Below the pieces are notes generated by a model, which had not been told where the DNA came from, made no database searches, and worked only from the letters and a program-made list of their open reading frames with translations. Of a DNA stretch of 38,534 nt, positions 4,115-35,388 are shown one piece after another (within the stretch, counting starts at the first letter, position 1; the number at the start of each line of letters is the position of its first letter). Source of the stretch: Anaerolineae bacterium (GTDB lineage Bacteria; Chloroflexota; Anaerolineae; B4-G1; DUEL01); NCBI GenBank assembly GCA_034435815.1, contig DAOTWK010000239.1, positions 1 through 38,534 of the forward strand, read 5' to 3'. The position numbers were made by a program, and so were the translations under genes.

Positions 4115-5338
4115 ATGAAACCGTTATCCATAGACGACCAGGTCGCCCTGCTGATGCACGGGGCTGAATTTGGTGATGACCAGATCAGAGAGCGTATGGC
4201 TCAGGAACTCCGGGAGCGCTTGAAAGAAGGCCGTCCCCTGCGGGTCTACTGCGGGTACGACCCCACTGCTCCCGACCTTCACCTGGGCCACACCGTCACT
4301 ATGCGCAAACTGCGGCTTTTCCAGGACCTGGGGCATCAGGCCATCTTCGTCATTGGGGACTACACTGCTCTCATCGGCGACCCGTCCGGCCGCGATAGGG
4401 CCCGTCCTCGCCCCACGCGTGAACAGGTCCAGGCCAACGCCCGCACTTATGTCCAGCAGGCCTTCAAAATACTGGACCCGGAACGGACAGAAGTCCGGTA
4501 CAACGGGGAATGGCTCTCCAAACTCTCCTACGAAGAGTTTATCTTTCTGGCTGCGCAGGTGACCGTTCAGCAGTTTCTGACGCGGGAGAATTTCGCCAGG
4601 CGGTACGCGGATGGGGACGCCATCTGGCTGCACGAATTCCTCTATCCTCTGGCCCAGGGATACGACGCGGTGATGCTGCGGGCCGATGTCCAGATTGGCG
4701 GTACGGACCAACTCTTCAACCTGCTGGTGGGCCGGAAAATCCAGGAAGCCTACGGCCTGCCCCCGCAGGTCTGCATCACTTATCCCATCCTGGTCGGCAC
4801 CGACGGCAAAATGCGGATGTCCAAGAGCATGGGCAACTACATCGGCGTGGACGAGCCGCCGGAGGTGATGTACGGCAAGGTCATGTCCATCCCGGACGAG
4901 GCGATGCCCAACTACTTTGACCTGGTGACTCGCTGGTCGCCGGAGGAGATTGCCCGGATTAAAGCAGCCATCGCCGACGGCTCCCTCCACCCGATGGAGG
5001 CCAAGAAGCGGCTGGCCTGGGAAATCGTGGACATCTTTCACGGGCGGGAGGCCGCCGATGCCGCCGCAGAGCACTTCCGTCGCGTTTTCCAGGAACGGCA
5101 ACTCCCGCCGGAGATACCCGTCTGGGAACTGCGGGGGCCGGTTAACATCGTAGACCTTATCTATGCTGCCGGGATGACTCGCTCCAAAAGTGACGCTCGC
5201 CGGTTGATCCAGCAGGGGAGCGTCCTGCTGGACGGGGTGAAGGTCACCAGCGTAGAAACCGTCGTTGAGCCGGAGAAGGAAGCCATCCTGCGAGTCGGTA
5301 ACCGGGGCTTCCTGCGGCTGGTGCCGGCCCGTGAATAG
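4115..5338 (+). CDS. tyrS: Tyrosyl-tRNA synthetase with C-terminal S4-like domain
   Basis: 407 aa. HIGH-type motif (DLHLGH) and KMSKS-type motif (KMRMSKSMGN) are present. The C-terminal RSKSDARRLIQQGSVLLDG is S4-like. RBS is GGAGCC. Confidence 0.92.
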   Translation: MKPLSIDDQVALLMHGAEFGDDQIRERMAQELRERLKEGRPLRVYCGYDPTAPDLHLGHTVTMRKLRLFQDLGHQAIFVIGDYTALIGDPSGRDRARPRPTREQVQANARTYVQQAFKILDPERTEVRYNGEWLSKLSYEEFIFLAAQVTVQQFLTRENFARRYADGDAIWLHEFLYPLAQGYDAVMLRADVQIGGTDQLFNLLVGRKIQEAYGLPPQVCITYPILVGTDGKMRMSKSMGNYIGVDEPPEVMYGKVMSIPDEAMPNYFDLVTRWSPEEIARIKAAIADGSLHPMEAKKRLAWEIVDIFHGREAADAAAEHFRRVFQERQLPPEIPVWELRGPVNIVDLIYAAGMTRSKSDARRLIQQGSVLLDGVKVTSVETVVEPEKEAILRVGNRGFLRLVPARE

Positions 5339-5396: not shown

Positions 5397-6185
5397 ATGC
5401 CCTACGTCCAGGTGAACGGTCTGCGTCTGCACTACCTGGTCCAGGGGTTCGGACCGGCCATGGTGCTGATTCACGGTCTGGGCTCCTGCGCGGAGGACTG
5501 GTCCCTGCTGCAGGCGCCGGCCCTGAGCCAGCGCTACCGGGTCCTGATGCCGGACCTGCGCGGCCACGGCCGAAGCGACAAGCCCCCCGGCCCTTACACT
5601 GTCCCCCAGATGGCCGACGACATCGCAGGATTCCTGAGCGCCCTGGGGACGGATTCGGCCCACATCATCGGGCTCTCCCTGGGCGGCGCGGTGGCCCAGG
5701 CGCTGGCCGTTCGGCATCCGGAGAGAGTCCGTTCCCTGGTGCTGGTCAATACCTTCGCCTATCTGCGGCCGAAGGGATGGGCGGAGTGGCGGCTGACCCT
5801 GACCCGCTTTGGGGCCCTGCTGGTGAACCTGGCCCTTCATGCTCGGCTGGAGGCGGAGCAACTTTTCCCCCGACCGGGCCAAGCGGGTTTGCGACGAGTG
5901 GCCTATCACCGACTCTGCACCAACGACCCCGCCGCTTACCGGGCGGCAATGATGGCGATGGCCCGCTACGACGGCCGTCGGGACCTGGGGCGCATCCGGG
6001 CCCCCACCCTGATTGTGGCGGGCCGGGAGGATACGGTGGTCCCCCTGCGGGCCAAAGAGGAACTGGCAGCGGGCATCCCCGGCGCCCGTCTGGTGGTCAT
6101 TCCCCGTTCCGGCCATGCCACGCCGACAGACCAGCCGGTGGTATTCAATCGCCTGGTGCTGGAGTTCCTGGGCGAACACCCCTGA
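5397..6185 (+). CDS. Alpha/beta-fold hydrolase
   Basis: ATG at 5397 is preceded by GGAGGA. Motifs seen: HGLG oxyanion region, nucleophile elbow GLSLGG, late GH. About 262 aa. The track ORF start at 5265 lies inside tyrS. Confidence 0.85.
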   Translation: MPYVQVNGLRLHYLVQGFGPAMVLIHGLGSCAEDWSLLQAPALSQRYRVLMPDLRGHGRSDKPPGPYTVPQMADDIAGFLSALGTDSAHIIGLSLGGAVAQALAVRHPERVRSLVLVNTFAYLRPKGWAEWRLTLTRFGALLVNLALHARLEAEQLFPRPGQAGLRRVAYHRLCTNDPAAYRAAMMAMARYDGRRDLGRIRAPTLIVAGREDTVVPLRAKEELAAGIPGARLVVIPRSGHATPTDQPVVFNRLVLEFLGEHP

Positions 6186-12133: not shown

Positions 12134-12144
12134 AACTGCTACCT

Positions 12145-12172
12145 CCGGATTGCGTATTCCGTGTTCCGTTAG
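12145..12172. repeat. Heptamer repeat (CCGTATT family) filling the spacer between the MTase-1 stop and the XDH start
   Basis: ccggatt gcgtatt ccgtgtt ccgttag. Contains CGTATTCCGTG at 12153-12163. Confidence 0.8.
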
Positions 12173-14340
12173 AACAGGGGCAGTTGGTGAACCGGGAGGG
12201 GGACGGTTGCAGCCAGCGTTTTCCCCATTTCCTGAGCCGCCAGGGACATTTCTTCCAGTAATTCTTTCAGAAGGCCCTCCCCACCGCCCCCTGTTCTCTC
12301 TGCGACGGCCCGGGTGTAATACTCCACCGTCTTGCCCATCACGACGGTAAAGACATCCACCGGATTGACCGGAAGCCCGGAGTTCAGGGTCCGCTCAATC
12401 CAGTAGCGGGCATCGTTCAGAATCCACTCCTTCAGGGCGGATATGCCACCTTCTACCATTTGCTCGGTGTGTCCTGCTTCCTGCATCTTCCGGCAGACCA
12501 GGATGCAGTCGTAGCGGATGTTGCCCGCGCTGGAGTGGAACCCGCTCCGTCCCTCCGAACGCACCACCGGCGCCGCAGAGACGTAGAATCCCGCCCGCAG
12601 AAGGAGACGGGCCACCCCTTCCCAGGCCCAGGTCTGGTTGTGGTGGAACGTGAAGGCCAGCAGGCCGTCGTCCTTCAGCACCCGATGGCATTCGGCGAAG
12701 ACCTGCCCCAGCCGCTCTACGAAGAAGTCCGCCGACTTCCCCCGCCGCTCGTTCTGCACAATCTCCTCCGGCCGCTCAGAGTAGGGCGGCTCAAACCAGG
12801 GGTAATCTGCTTGCAGCCCCAGGCGGAGCCAGACGTAGAAGAAGTCGGCCAGTTCGGAGTACTGGACGTTATCAAAATACGGCGGGTCGGTGATCACGGC
12901 GTCCACGGACCGGTCCGGGACCAACGAGAGGTCTTCGGAGGACTGGCAGCACAGGAGAGCGCCGCGAGGCGTCCGTTCCAGCGCGGAAAAGTCCTCTACC
13001 AGGACCCCTTCCGCGCGCTCCCCCCGAACGGAACGGCGGGCGCCGTCTATCCGTTCGTAGGGGCGCTGGCCGTAGGCTTTCCCCCGCCGGACCTTCTCAA
13101 AGCACCTGAAGAAGGTCCCGCGCCCGAACGCCGTCCCCCAAACGTTGTTTTCGGTCGGGCGCTCAATGGGATGGTAGGCGTGAAGGCCAAAGAAAACCGA
13201 CACCTTGTGCCAGGCCGTCTCATATTTGCAGAACATGTTGTTGGCGTCCAGCGCGTCCGAGAAGGCCAGGAGCATCAGTTCGCGGATGTTCCGGTCGGGA
13301 ATCTCCAGAATCGCCTCCAGGAGGGTGGAGAGGCAGAGCAACTGGCGCTCGTTGAACATGTGCCAGAAATGAGTGTAGCCGTGATTGACCGGGCGGGGGT
13401 CGCTGCGGCCCTCGGTGGGGATGGCCTGCCGGGGGAAGAGGAGGTCGTCCCGACGGCGCTCAAACTCGGCCCGGGCCTCCTCCCAGCGCCGCAGGTCCGC
13501 CTCATCCACCCGCTTGAAGAAGCGGCCGCAGGTCCGGCAGTAGCCCTCCAGGGCGTGGAGTTCGGCCCGCAGGGGCCTGCCCCGGCGCGCGGCCGCGTCC
13601 CCCAGCCGCTGCCGCTTTCCGCAGGCGGTGCATCGGAAAACGCCGCGCCCGGAGTTCCCCCGCCGGGGGTCAAAGACGGTCCCGCAATCCGGGCAGGCCG
13701 TGTGGGGGTCATACCCTGCCGTCTCCACCACCTGAAGGCACTCAGGGCACACCACGACGTGGCGGTGGTCCCGAAGGGAGAGCTCCATATTCGGCCACAG
13801 GCGGACGGCGGCGCCGCATTCCTCGCATTCCGCCACCTTGACCCAGAAGTAGTACATTACGTCGGCCTCGTGCCCGGCGGAGCAGGTAGTCCGATAAAAC
13901 TCCCGGATTTTCTCCCCGGCGGTCGCTTCAAGGAAGCGGAAGGCGCGATCCAGTTCCGCCAGGTCCACCGGCTCTATCTCTTTTTTGGTCACGAACCAGG
14001 CGACGGGATTGATGTCCACGCCGATGACGCGACAGCCCAGCCGAAGGGCCTCCACCACCGTGGTGCCGCCGCCCATAAAAGGGTCCAGGACGATCTTGCC
14101 CTCCAAGTTGGGACGGCATTCCGTTTCGCCTCGGGCCGGGCTCCCCACGAACCAGGACCAGAGAGTGTCTTCCGAGACTTCCGCCGAGGCGAAAGCCGCC
14201 AGCGTAATCATACGGAAGACGCTCCCCAGGCGCCGGGCCCACCATTTGTGCATCTGGTAGATGGGCTTTTTGGAGTTTCCCTCCGCCAGGGCGACAGGGT
14301 TCAGGCGTTCAACGGGGAAATCGCGCTCTATGTACCGCAT
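12169..14340 (-). CDS. Zn-ribbon-containing DNA methyltransferase (COG1743 / DUF1156-like; N6-A or N4-C type)
   Basis: 723 aa. N-terminal PIYQMHKWWARRLGSVFR is present. SAM motif I is VLDPFMGGGTT...GVDINP. Several CxxC pairs occur (CEEC, CPEC, CPDC, CTAC). Catalytic motif IV is VITDPPYFDNVQY, near the C-terminal third. Confidence 0.7.
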   Translation of the reverse strand: MRYIERDFPVERLNPVALAEGNSKKPIYQMHKWWARRLGSVFRMITLAAFASAEVSEDTLWSWFVGSPARGETECRPNLEGKIVLDPFMGGGTTVVEALRLGCRVIGVDINPVAWFVTKKEIEPVDLAELDRAFRFLEATAGEKIREFYRTTCSAGHEADVMYYFWVKVAECEECGAAVRLWPNMELSLRDHRHVVVCPECLQVVETAGYDPHTACPDCGTVFDPRRGNSGRGVFRCTACGKRQRLGDAAARRGRPLRAELHALEGYCRTCGRFFKRVDEADLRRWEEARAEFERRRDDLLFPRQAIPTEGRSDPRPVNHGYTHFWHMFNERQLLCLSTLLEAILEIPDRNIRELMLLAFSDALDANNMFCKYETAWHKVSVFFGLHAYHPIERPTENNVWGTAFGRGTFFRCFEKVRRGKAYGQRPYERIDGARRSVRGERAEGVLVEDFSALERTPRGALLCCQSSEDLSLVPDRSVDAVITDPPYFDNVQYSELADFFYVWLRLGLQADYPWFEPPYSERPEEIVQNERRGKSADFFVERLGQVFAECHRVLKDDGLLAFTFHHNQTWAWEGVARLLLRAGFYVSAAPVVRSEGRSGFHSSAGNIRYDCILVCRKMQEAGHTEQMVEGGISALKEWILNDARYWIERTLNSGLPVNPVDVFTVVMGKTVEYYTRAVAERTGGGGEGLLKELLEEMSLAAQEMGKTLAATVPLPVHQLPLF

Positions 14341-14368
14341 CCGTATTCCGTACTACGTATTCCGTGCC
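14341..14368. repeat. Heptamer repeat (CCGTATT family) spanning the last codons of the endonuclease gene and the spacer before the MTase-1 start
   Basis: ccgtatt ccgtact acgtatt ccgtgcc. Contains CGTATTCCGTG at 14356-14366. Confidence 0.8.
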
Positions 14369-19432: not shown

Positions 19433-19514
19433 GTTCACCTCTTGCGAAACCACGAAGACGCGAATGGACAATTCGCAATGAACGATTCCTCGTGTCTTCG
19501 TGTCTTTGTAGTTT
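19433..19514. other. Structured ruvX-mltG spacer: octamer repeat (CGTGTCTT x2, 19491-19506) and a long nested hairpin
   Basis: cacgaagacgcg (19451-19462) pairs with cgtgtcttcgtg (19491-19502) with one mismatch. An inner stem gaatgg-acaattcgc region has GCGAAT/ATTCGC complementarity. Confidence 0.65.
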
Positions 19515-32929: not shown

Positions 32930-32965
32930 GCGGCGGCGGCCTCTGGCCGCCGCCGCTGTGTTCTC
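32930..32965 (+). terminator. Probable terminator of the A2M gene
   Basis: 12-bp stem gcggcggcggcc tct ggccgccgccgc, followed by tgtgttctct. A second 11-bp hairpin is at 32865-32892. Confidence 0.55.
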
Positions 32966-33750
32966 TACGGCGTCTCCCCCCTGAGGAAGCACAAAATCCC
33001 GTCCACAATCCCCTGAGCAATCAGGTCCTGTCGGTGCAGGAGAATATCCCGGTCGGCCAGGAGAAAACCAATCTCTATGATAGCGCCCGGGGTGAAAGGG
33101 TCAATCTCGTAGAAAGTATGGTATTGGGTCATATCAGGGGTGACGCTTCCCTCATGGAAGGGCAGACCGGTGCGGGCCCCGTAGCGGCTGACCAGGCAGG
33201 CAACCAGATGGTCCTCTACATGGGGGATAGCACTCTCTTCCACGCGGGCCACCTTGAAGCCGGAGGCTTCCGGGTAGAGGCAAGCGTCGGCGTGGATGGA
33301 GACCAGGGCGCGGGCCCGGTAGCCCTCCAGCCGGGGGTCAAACTCCTCCAGCAGGTCGGTGGGATATCCGGCGGCCTCCAGCCCTCTCACAACCCGCCGG
33401 GCGACAGCCAGATTCACGTCCACTTCCCGAAGCCAGCCGTCGCAGATGGCGCCGGTATCGTTCCCCCAGTGGCCGGCGACAATGCCGATGGGCAACACCT
33501 CCGGCGTACCGGCAAGGGGCGTCGGCCTGGGGGAGGGAGTGGGGAAAGGAGTAGAGCTCAGCAGGAAATAGCCAGGCGATGGAGTGACGGGAGGGGGGCC
33601 GGCCACGTGCTCCGCGCCAGCACTCAACCCGATGCGGATGAGAGCCAGAAGGGCGGTTCCCAGGACGACCAGTGCCAGCAGGCGCGGCGCACCGGAGGCG
33701 GCTGGTTGCCTCTCCCGTGACTCCACCGGGCGGGCCATCTGGCGAGACAT
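32965..33750 (-). CDS. N-acetylmuramoyl-L-alanine amidase (Amidase_3 family) with N-terminal TM anchor
   Basis: IVAGHWGND, VSIHADA and IIEIGFL motifs are present. I chose the ATG at 33750; the track ORF begins at TTG 33762. Confidence 0.82.
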   Translation of the reverse strand: MSRQMARPVESRERQPAASGAPRLLALVVLGTALLALIRIGLSAGAEHVAGPPPVTPSPGYFLLSSTPFPTPSPRPTPLAGTPEVLPIGIVAGHWGNDTGAICDGWLREVDVNLAVARRVVRGLEAAGYPTDLLEEFDPRLEGYRARALVSIHADACLYPEASGFKVARVEESAIPHVEDHLVACLVSRYGARTGLPFHEGSVTPDMTQYHTFYEIDPFTPGAIIEIGFLLADRDILLHRQDLIAQGIVDGILCFLRGETP

Positions 33751-33817
33751 GGCAGGTCGCAAGTCACAGATACGGGCCAGGCGTCACCCGTACTGCAGGG
33801 CACAGGTCACAAACGGC

Positions 33818-33901
33818 GATACGCGATAAACGATACGCGATGAGCGATAAACGATACGCGATGAGCGATATGCGATACGCGATGAGCGATATGCGATACG
33901 C
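33818..33901. repeat. Twelve consecutive heptamers GAT-NNN-C (21-nt super-repeat)
   Basis: gatacgc gataaac gatacgc gatgagc gataaac gatacgc gatgagc gatatgc gatacgc gatgagc gatatgc gatacgc. Confidence 0.95.
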
Positions 33902-33903
33902 GC

Positions 33904-34428
33904 TTACCGGCTCTCTTCCACACAAAACGCGCCGATGTGGTGTTTGTTGACCAGAATGCCGCCGGCATTGAAGACGATATCAGGCCGAATAGAACCGCGC
34001 ACCCGTCCGTCCAGGACAACCAGGAAATCCTCCGTGTCCGTTACCAGCAGCCGCCGCAGGTCCACCCGGGCGGAGAGGCGCAGGTAGCCACTGACTTCAA
34101 ACGTGGGGACGGTCAGAAAGATATTGTAGAGATACGCGCCCGTGTAACTGCCATAGGTCTGCTTACGGGGCAGCGCGTCCTCCTGACGGGCCACCAGAGC
34201 CAGCGTCAGGTTCGCTTTGGCCAAAGTGGAGGCGGGATAGGAAGCGAGAATCTCGCCAGGCCGGTCAATCGGGGAGATATAGGCATCCTCCAGGAGAAGG
34301 AACCCCGTCGTCCGGTCGTTCAACATCTCAAAGAGGCCATAACGGCGCACATCCAGGTGCCCGGAGATACGGTAACTTTGGGTGAAAAAGTCCACTACCA
34401 GCCAGCCGACCTGTCGGATTTCTTCCAT
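33904..34428 (-). CDS. Hypothetical protein (174 aa)
   Basis: The ORF is tightly packed (9-nt gap) behind the DeoC-like gene. I did not recognise any motif. Confidence 0.5.
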   Translation of the reverse strand: MEEIRQVGWLVVDFFTQSYRISGHLDVRRYGLFEMLNDRTTGFLLLEDAYISPIDRPGEILASYPASTLAKANLTLALVARQEDALPRKQTYGSYTGAYLYNIFLTVPTFEVSGYLRLSARVDLRRLLVTDTEDFLVVLDGRVRGSIRPDIVFNAGGILVNKHHIGAFCVEESR

Positions 34429-34437
34429 GGCGACTCC

Positions 34438-35388
34438 TCACATTGATGGTGGACGGTACAGCATAGAGAGCCACTCCTGCCGTCGATGCTGGTGGGGACA
34501 GCGGGGGCAGAAGGTCAGGGCCGCGCTCCGCAGTTCCGGCGTCTGCTTCTCCGCGTAACCGGAGGGACAGTACGAGCAGGGGATGGCATCGCTCAGGTCT
34601 TCCCGCACCCGCTCCAACGTGGAGAGGAGGCCTGCAGGGCTGGAGGTGCCCAGTCGGAATCGCTCCGGCACTCGCAGTTCGGGTGTGGGCGCGCCAGCAA
34701 AGACGAGCCGCACTGCATCGGCGGCGGTCCGAATGCCCCCGGCGGCTTTCACCCCCATCCCGGGCCCCACTGCCTCCCGCATCCGGCGGATATGCTCCGG
34801 CGTAGCGCCGAAGGCTTCCATGCCAGTGGAGTTCTTCACAAAGTGGGCTCCCGCCTCCTGCGCGATCCGGCAGGCCAGTGTGATCTCCTCGTTGCGGAGT
34901 TCGGAGGATCGGATGATGACTTTGACGACCTCCCCGTCGGCTGCATCCACCACGGCGGCGACCTCCCGCCAGGTGTGCTCTGGGTCACTCCGGAGACGGC
35001 CTACATTGATGACCATATCCAGTTCCACCCACCCCGGCCCCTCCTGGCGAAGGGCGCGACTTTCGGCCACGATGCGGGCGGCCTGATGGGCTTTCATTGC
35101 GATGGTGGATTTGCCCAAGGGGAAATCCACCACGTAGCATTCTTTCACCCCGGTCCCCGCCAGCAACCGGGGCAGGAAGTCCACCTCCGCGGGATTTACG
35201 CAGACAGAGGCGCAGCGGAGGCGGACGGCGGTTTCGGCCAGGGCGCGGATTTTCGCCTCCGGCGTGTCGGCCCGCAGGTCAGTGGCGTCTATCAGCGCGG
35301 CCAGGCGCTGGGGGGTGAGCCAGCGGATAATCTCCTCCAGCGCATCGGGCGGAAAATCTACCAGTGGCATTGGCGGCAGCTCGTCCAT
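34438..35388 (-). CDS. DeoC/class I aldolase family protein with a C-terminal CxxC...CxxC tail
   Basis: VCVNP, VVDFPLG, ELDMVIN, VKVII and FVKNSTG (Schiff-base Lys context) are present. The tail reads CSYCPSGY...FCPRCPHQH. Confidence 0.72.
   Translation of the reverse strand: MDELPPMPLVDFPPDALEEIIRWLTPQRLAALIDATDLRADTPEAKIRALAETAVRLRCASVCVNPAEVDFLPRLLAGTGVKECYVVDFPLGKSTIAMKAHQAARIVAESRALRQEGPGWVELDMVINVGRLRSDPEHTWREVAAVVDAADGEVVKVIIRSSELRNEEITLACRIAQEAGAHFVKNSTGMEAFGATPEHIRRMREAVGPGMGVKAAGGIRTAADAVRLVFAGAPTPELRVPERFRLGTSSPAGLLSTLERVREDLSDAIPCSYCPSGYAEKQTPELRSAALTFCPRCPHQHRRQEWLSMLYRPPSM

Follow-up and report, generated by a model that had tools for sequence, protein, structure and literature searches.

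Among the long simple repeats of many bacteria, those with a unit of 7 nt are over-represented most strongly. The short tandemly repeated repetitive (STRR) heptamers STRR1-3 of cyanobacteria have the units CCCCAGT, TTGGTCA and CAACAGT. In Haemophilus influenzae, hmw1A and hmw2A have a phase-variable 7-nt SSR in a defined promoter/5'-UTR, and its copy number sets the expression of the genes. Long bacterial heptanucleotide SSRs were treated by Mrazek et al. (2007; summaries in PMC4679880 and PMC4692102), and the STRR heptamers of heterocystous cyanobacteria (Calothrix/Nostoc) are cited in PMC4692102. The intergenic heptamers GGGAATC of Xanthomonas and GGGGA(C/T)T of Nostoc are found at about 180 intergenic loci per genome, with the same loci occupied in close relatives and with extensive variation in length and sequence (Rehm et al. 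2015, PMC4692102). TAACTGA direct repeats occur in marine Beggiatoaceae, some cyanobacteria and Bacteroidetes (MacGregor 2015, PMC4679880). Searching the literature turned up no publication describing such repeats in either Thermoflexus or the Chloroflexota; the Thermoflexus genome paper mentions CRISPR repeats only (PMC8129789).

The window, i.e. the whole stretch of 38,534 nt analysed here, is contig C239 of a hot-spring Thermoflexus-like MAG (Thermoflexales, Chloroflexota; 2.98 Mb, 489 contigs, 63.5 % G+C). The nearest public relatives are Thermoflexales, Thermoflexus or Anaerolineae MAGs, also of the Chloroflexota. One spacer in the window, between two minus-strand genes, is built of tandem heptamers, which an earlier note on this DNA had likened to the cyanobacterial STRR. 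The comparison holds as a resemblance. As with STRR, tandem 7-nt units of several families are present in one genome at dozens of dispersed, mostly intergenic loci, but the host is a thermophilic member of the Chloroflexota with the G+C content given above, and the units are NNATCGC, NNCYTGC, ACGTGAA and others. None of the 50 canonical unit classes of this genome equals one of the STRR1-3 units in the form given above. The host not being a heterocystous cyanobacterium and the units being different, the array is not STRR in the strict sense.

With the Xanthomonas and Nostoc repeats, the arrays of this genome share heterogeneous units having both conserved and free positions, variation at the level of the locus and occasional inverted pairs. 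The Xanthomonas and Nostoc units are, however, G-rich and G-quadruplex-capable, whereas the units at this locus have no G-runs, and the compound array of two families which fills the entire spacer from stop to start is particular to this locus. Like the TAACTGA repeats, the arrays are intergenic, often lie directly upstream of start codons and often coincide with the ends of contigs. TAACTGA is a single dominant heptamer, mostly in 2-6 copies and 'forward', whereas here there are many families, with up to 25-39 copies and in both orientations. The likeness to hmw1A/hmw2A consists of a 7-nt SSR upstream of a gene, with copy number varying between strains; the difference is that no promoter was found here and that the genome contains about 100 such arrays. 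The locus represents a new host (Thermoflexales), not a new kind of element, and no current concept is changed by it.

The features of the spacer and its flanking genes are, by position in the window:

32965..33750, minus strand, downstream gene, N-acetylmuramoyl-L-alanine amidase (Amidase_3) with an N-terminal membrane anchor
33738..33752, minus strand, amidase start region, with ATG 33750 and, four codons on, ATG 33738
33751..33815, minus strand, block B, a degenerate NNCYTGC array (GACCTGT GCCCTGC ... GACTTGC GACCTGC C) reaching to about 2 nt before ATG 33750
33816..33899, minus strand, block A, 12 tandem NNATCGC heptamers (plus strand GCGATNN, or GATNNNC in the register 33818-33901)
33900..33906, minus strand, proto-unit TAAGCGC, made up of the stop codon TAA of the 174-aa gene and the next four nt, GCGC, in phase with block A as its first unit
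33904..34428, minus strand, upstream gene, an ORF of 174 aa, unmatched in Pfam and NCBIfam

On the plus strand, positions 33818-33901 consist of exactly 12 uninterrupted GATNNNC units, in the register described in the earlier note. The first six are GATACGC GATAAAC GATACGC GATGAGC GATAAAC GATACGC and the remaining six GATGAGC GATATGC GATACGC GATGAGC GATATGC GATACGC. The lag-7 identity of this stretch was 0.74, compared with 0.26 ± 0.05 in shuffles (z 9.8), and 0 of 10,000 shuffles equalled 0.74. The 12 units are thus head-to-tail 7-nt units in several copies, beyond chance, as in a heptamer SSR. With Tandem Repeats Finder (TRF), 33816-33902 was described by a period of 7 in 12.4 copies (score 90), and better by a period of 21 in 4.1 copies (93 % matches, score 132). 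The lag-21 identity of 33818-33901 was 0.94, and the 21-nt super-repeats claimed previously were thus recovered by both measures.

Read along the gene (minus) strand, the spacer consists of block A followed by block B. Units 1-6 of block A are GTATCGC ATATCGC TCATCGC, GTATCGC ATATCGC TCATCGC, and units 7-12 are GTATCGT TTATCGC TCATCGC, GTATCGT TTATCGC GTATCGC, so that the layout [GT,AT,TC][GT,AT,TC][GT',TT,TC][GT',TT,GT] corresponds to a pair of 21-nt blocks, both of which are present twice. The 174-aa gene's TAA stop and the GCGC after it are in register as a proto-unit, and the array therefore begins at the stop codon. The first unit in the orthologues is always TAAGCGC, TAGGCGC, TAAACGC or TAATCGC, the last of which, found in L026, is a perfect block A unit. 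The stop codon of the 174-aa gene is thus the fixed 5' boundary of the array.

The periodicity is weaker in the 67 nt up to the amidase ATG (33751-33817), where the lag-7 identity was 0.47 (z 3.5) and was equalled in 8 of 10,000 shuffles. A looser 7-nt periodicity continuing to the start codon had been noticed earlier, and in relatives a clean second array is found there, with 3-14 block B units having CCTGC or CTTGC cores. Block B of this genome is interrupted by approximately 28 nt which form a weak local 8-bp hairpin (33786-33807).

The start of the amidase is ambiguous, TTG 33762, ATG 33750 and ATG 33738 being the candidates, and a Shine-Dalgarno (SD) motif is not present upstream of any of the three. 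ATG 33738 alone begins the M-A-R-P N-terminus, which can be aligned in every orthologue, even where the first ATG is lacking. There is no record of the 257-aa form of the amidase. The spacer length of 141 nt given in the earlier note is correct only when TTG 33762 is counted as the start; the distance is 153 nt to ATG 33750 and 165 nt to ATG 33738. The 174-aa ORF is conserved in Thermoflexales and Anaerolineae with 65-99 % amino acid identity.

The promoter/terminator scan found neither a sigma-70-like promoter consensus nor a terminator-like hairpin in the spacer, and co-transcription of the 174-aa gene and the amidase is therefore likely. In a phase-variable contingency locus, an SSR inside an ORF or a promoter/5'-UTR switches expression through its length; the array here varies in length and is located outside any ORF, and no promoter consensus was found. 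A scan of 33000-35000 with the Rfam 15 covariance models gave nothing relevant, the single match being at chance level (E 0.19) and elsewhere. The predicted RNA fold of the spacer had an ordinary energy (z +0.25 compared with shuffles).

Orthologous spacers (n = 19) were obtained from GTDB genomes and from JGI/ENA metagenomes. Within the genus-level group the order of stop codon, block A (ATCGC core), block B (CCTGC or CTTGC core) and ATG is constant, and the turnover of the units is rapid. With the conserved ATG as the end, spacers range from 64 to 331 nt among relatives, and the length differences between relatives are multiples of 7. The number of ATCGC cores was 0 (L007), 3, 4, 5, 5, 6, 11, 11, 12, 12, 13, 13, 14, 14, 14 and 39 (L024), the spacer in the window being one of the two with 12; copy number (0-39 units) as well as unit sequence vary at this locus between close relatives. 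Four strains which are at least 99.2 % identical in a 522-nt flanking gene have 14, 11, 14 and 13 block A units, in agreement with the variation in unit number between strains that had been predicted. The spacers of two of these strains, L020 and L021, differ by exactly 21 nt, and L024, with its 39 units, has a flanking gene 97 % identical to that of the four strains.

In L030, a more distant orthologue (83 % amino acid identity), the same spacer contains other units, the octamer GAGTTTGC and the pair AATTTTG/AATCCGC. The spacer of L008 (80 % amino acid identity) is array-free, 58 nt long and has a strong GGAGGAGG SD motif, and every array-bearing orthologue is without an SD motif. Relatives more distant than L008 have a different gene downstream; in L009-L012 a response-regulator-like gene, not the amidase, follows the 174-aa ORF.

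Seven independent short-read contigs with identical flanking proteins all end inside the array, and their partial arrays equal the window base for base. Since all seven of these same-strain contigs break inside the array, the exact copy number in the MAG rests on one assembly.

A logo of block A (196 units from 15 loci) had entropies of 1.75 and 1.24 bits at positions 1 and 2, and 0.14-0.64 bits at positions 3-7. The variable NN and steady ATCGC core could reflect a sequence-specific constraint. This hint is weak, because when each distinct unit type is counted once, a core position yields new variants about as often as a linker position does, and the core variants are simply amplified less.

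Heptamers were found to be a genome-wide class when TRF was run on the whole genome, as the earlier note had proposed: periods 7, 14 and 21 had 101, 77 and 63 rows, compared with 16 and 33 for periods 6 and 8. A strict lag-identity detector found 36 arrays (2002 nt) with period 7, compared with 0-11 arrays for each other period from 4 to 12. The curated set contains 94 heptamer arrays, in total 5.0 kb or approximately 1.4 % of the non-coding DNA, with a median length of 48 nt and a maximum of 177 nt; the array at this locus ranks 11th.

The locations of the arrays are approximate, as the underlying gene calls (2553 genes, 88 % coding) come from a home-made finder based on codon usage. Forty-seven arrays were assigned to co-oriented spacers, one to a divergent and one to a convergent spacer, 28 were beside contig ends and 17 were called inside genes. 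Co-oriented spacers thus held 47 of the 49 intergenic arrays with both neighbours called, compared with 81 % expected (p 0.002). Ten of the 17 arrays called in coding sequence were in the outermost 7 % at either end of the called gene and are therefore probably boundary mis-calls. Many arrays span the whole gap from the stop of one gene to the start of the next, and 20 of the 94 were at most 60 nt from a contig end. Both the excess of period 7 and the mainly intergenic placement expected of an SSR class are present in this genome.

The 94 arrays represent about 50 canonical unit classes, few of which are dominant. Sixteen arrays are of the AAACGTG (= GTGAAAC) class, and eight, block A among them, are of the ACGCGAT (= GCGATAC) class. 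Super-periods of 14 nt are as common genome-wide as those of 21 nt, the 21-nt super-period being found at this locus and in L006. Four tandem ACGNNAN units occurred in 43 of 61 relatives and in each of the three families of the order, with as many as 223 hits in one genome. For this pattern the backwards control was at or near 0 in most relatives and substantial in a few, e.g. G008 and G009. In a phylum-wide sample, only 23 of 301 genomes had the four tandem units, and some other Chloroflexota have heptamer arrays of other sequence, seen as high control counts. Being order-wide but rare in the phylum, the ACGNNAN arrays indicate a unit repertoire that is lineage-specific and long-lived.

The load of ACGNNAN arrays varied from 0 to 223 hits within one family (G002, G018 and G020 compared with G001 and G016). 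G002, assembled in 30 contigs, had none, and heavily fragmented MAGs had many. The data suggest that array load differs strongly between species and that the arrays drive assembly fragmentation.

The unit families occur in both orientations relative to genes, with 17 arrays purine-rich and 20 pyrimidine-rich on the sense strand. A polarity of strand with position, in which purine-rich arrays would follow stops and pyrimidine-rich ones precede starts, was not significant (rho -0.22, p 0.18). This neutrality of orientation argues against an RNA-strand-specific element and for an origin at the DNA level. No shared flanks were found around the arrays of the GTGAAAC and GCGAT types, and with unrelated flanks within one class the arrays are not copies of a mobile element. 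MutS and MutL domains were present in 26 of the 26 genomes searched, so that loss of mismatch repair is not the cause of the arrays.

We consider it likely that the array is a slippage-driven, STRR-like compound microsatellite of heptanucleotides and that it determines how long the SD-less, weakly structured leader of the amidase is. It would be a member of a lineage-wide, STRR-like intergenic heptamer class in Thermoflexales (Chloroflexota), in which whole 7-nt units or 14/21-nt blocks would be gained and lost at the DNA level by slipped-strand mispairing or unequal exchange. Selection on the stop codon at one end and on the start codon at the other would hold both ends of the array in place. 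The length of the array would set that of the amidase leader, about 64 to 331 nt in relatives, which is weakly structured and SD-free, and a change in copy number may therefore tune translation of the amidase relative to the 174-aa gene. Such an effect on the amidase is more likely a by-product than the reason for the array, which may nevertheless have a regulatory role. Neutral slippage by itself leaves three observations unaccounted for: the preference for 7 nt, the recurrence of the same few unit families at dozens of unlinked loci and their recurrence across all three families of the order.

An alternative, which we regard as rather unlikely, is that selection maintains the array as a cis-acting leader. 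In the bicistronic mRNA it would serve as a landing pad or spacer, unstructured and SD-free, and its length would tune translation of the amidase in the manner of a contingency locus or uncouple it from the upstream gene. When folded in 45-nt windows at 37 °C, arrays had -6.05 kcal mol−1 compared with -11.3 kcal mol−1 for other co-oriented spacers (p 2e-5), i.e. they fold about half as strongly, and at 70 °C the median fold energy of the arrays was 0. The weak folding is, however, a matter of base composition and not of order, since the 40 arrays folded against their own dinucleotide shuffles had no systematic excess or lack of structure, and the z value of this spacer was likewise ordinary. 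Ten of the 13 arrays abutting a start codon leave no SD motif, compared with 41 % SD-less genes genome-wide, which together with the strong GGAGGAGG motif of the array-free L008 and the enrichment of arrays in co-oriented spacers (p 0.002) would suit a selected leader. A translational role has also been proposed for the TAACTGA repeats upstream of start codons in Beggiatoaceae (PMC4679880). Both orientations on the sense strand are, on the other hand, equally common, which is hard to fit to a role that depends on RNA sequence, and the copy number varies from 0 to 39 among relatives while the amidase is intact in all of them.

It is improbable, in our estimate, that the arrays of Thermoflexales are kept by a sequence-specific process, either a protein that reads heptads or an active mechanism that generates heptamers. 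As each family is found in both orientations in different operons, transcripts with complementary arrays could also pair in trans. Such upkeep would, if real, explain why ACGNNAN, GCGATNN and CCTGCNN persist at hundreds of unlinked loci across the order. The (GUAUCGC)12 of this locus could then pair with the 25-copy (GCGAUAC) array at C414:9808-9984, as part of a hidden network of RNA-RNA interactions.

The narrower proposal that the array is a platform for a protein reading a 5-nt core every 7 nt is slightly more improbable still. Candidate readers are cold-shock/OB-fold proteins, which would bind RNA or DNA as single strands, and nucleoid or regulatory proteins, which would bind the DNA duplex, where 21 bp correspond to two helical turns. 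The conserved ATCGC core and two variable linker positions across 15 orthologous arrays fit such a platform, as do the order-wide persistence of unit families and the 21-nt super-period seen here and in L006, and binding of one CspB protein per heptamer is discussed in PMC4679880. Against it, many unrelated unit families coexist (about 50 classes among the 94 arrays), 14-nt super-periods are as common as 21-nt ones, core variants arise about as often per position as linker variants, and no candidate protein was identified.

That the array is an assembly artefact or another known element is scarcely credible: contigs of other assemblies do break inside it and its minus strand is open in all three frames, but the partial arrays on seven independent contig ends match the window base for base and 19 orthologous loci from independent metagenomes have the same two-block arrays, which excludes an artefact; the 7-nt units are contiguous and without spacers, unlike a CRISPR array (repeats of approximately 23-50 nt with unique spacers of similar length); REP/BIME elements and intrinsic terminators are excluded by the lack of a palindrome or U-tract, the fold z of +0.25 and the lack of a terminator-like site; and coding sequence is excluded by length differences which are multiples of 7, not 3. 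The earlier note had also set the array apart from CRISPR, REP and terminators, and the contiguous units, the absence of a hairpin or terminator signal in the spacer and the absence of an Rfam match agree with it.

The locus provides a clean natural series, in which one stop-to-start spacer has 0 to 39 units, and 11, 13 or 14 in near-identical strains. A thermophile of this lineage, Thermoflexus hugenholtzii, is available in culture, and the arrays would be a convenient system for asking whether heptamers affect the translation of SD-less genes. They could also be used as markers for strain typing. Contigs ending in arrays account for much of the fragmentation of Thermoflexales MAGs.

Other heptamer arrays are present in the window. 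An array of CAGGTCG on the plus strand (NNCCTGC on the gene strand, the family of block B) is located at 1859-1920, upstream of the minus-strand gene 29-1846 and 12 nt away from its start, and is followed by a good AAGGAGG SD motif. Arrays of TCCGTAT, with 3.7 copies each, are found at 12144-12169 and 14340-14365, on both sides of the minus-strand gene 12169-14340; they have the same orientation and are therefore direct repeats, not complementary ones.

On contig C414, a small minus-strand gene has an NNATCGC array upstream (C414:10361-10407) and the 25-copy GCGATAC array downstream (C414:9808-9984). The two arrays are reverse complements, so that the transcript could form a long-range duplex enclosing the whole ORF. 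An array and its reverse-complement array were observed within one spacer at C311:1332-1360, C54:730-833, C122:2058-2168, C270:542-586 and C190:4621-4658. Such pairs make long hairpins of heptamers, and at C311 a T-run after the hairpin gives it a terminator-like look.

Block B of one orthologue, L023 (Ga0315298_1010666), contains an inserted MITE-like element of approximately 108 nt, which is a near-perfect long hairpin (-58.8 kcal mol−1). At least six copies of this element, with 80-87 % identity, are present in the genome of the window, including those at C271:2809-2905, C15:8339-8436, C307:531-632 and C101:256-352.

Longer repeats with periods of 49-140 nt were found at C61:3155-3567, C370:27-308, C177:5167-5344, C109:6545-6719, C405:2596-2744 and C368:7613-7759. 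These tandem or dispersed families share words such as GACGCCCGGCGCAGACGCGCCC...GATTTTCAATC and are unrelated to the heptamers. Words of the CACGAAGGACA / TGTCCTTCGTG type form inverted repeats at C127:~6066-6150, C136:~2516-2640 and C376:~4875-4897 and at 19433-19514 of the window; present in several spacers beside heptamer arrays, they may constitute a separate small hairpin family.
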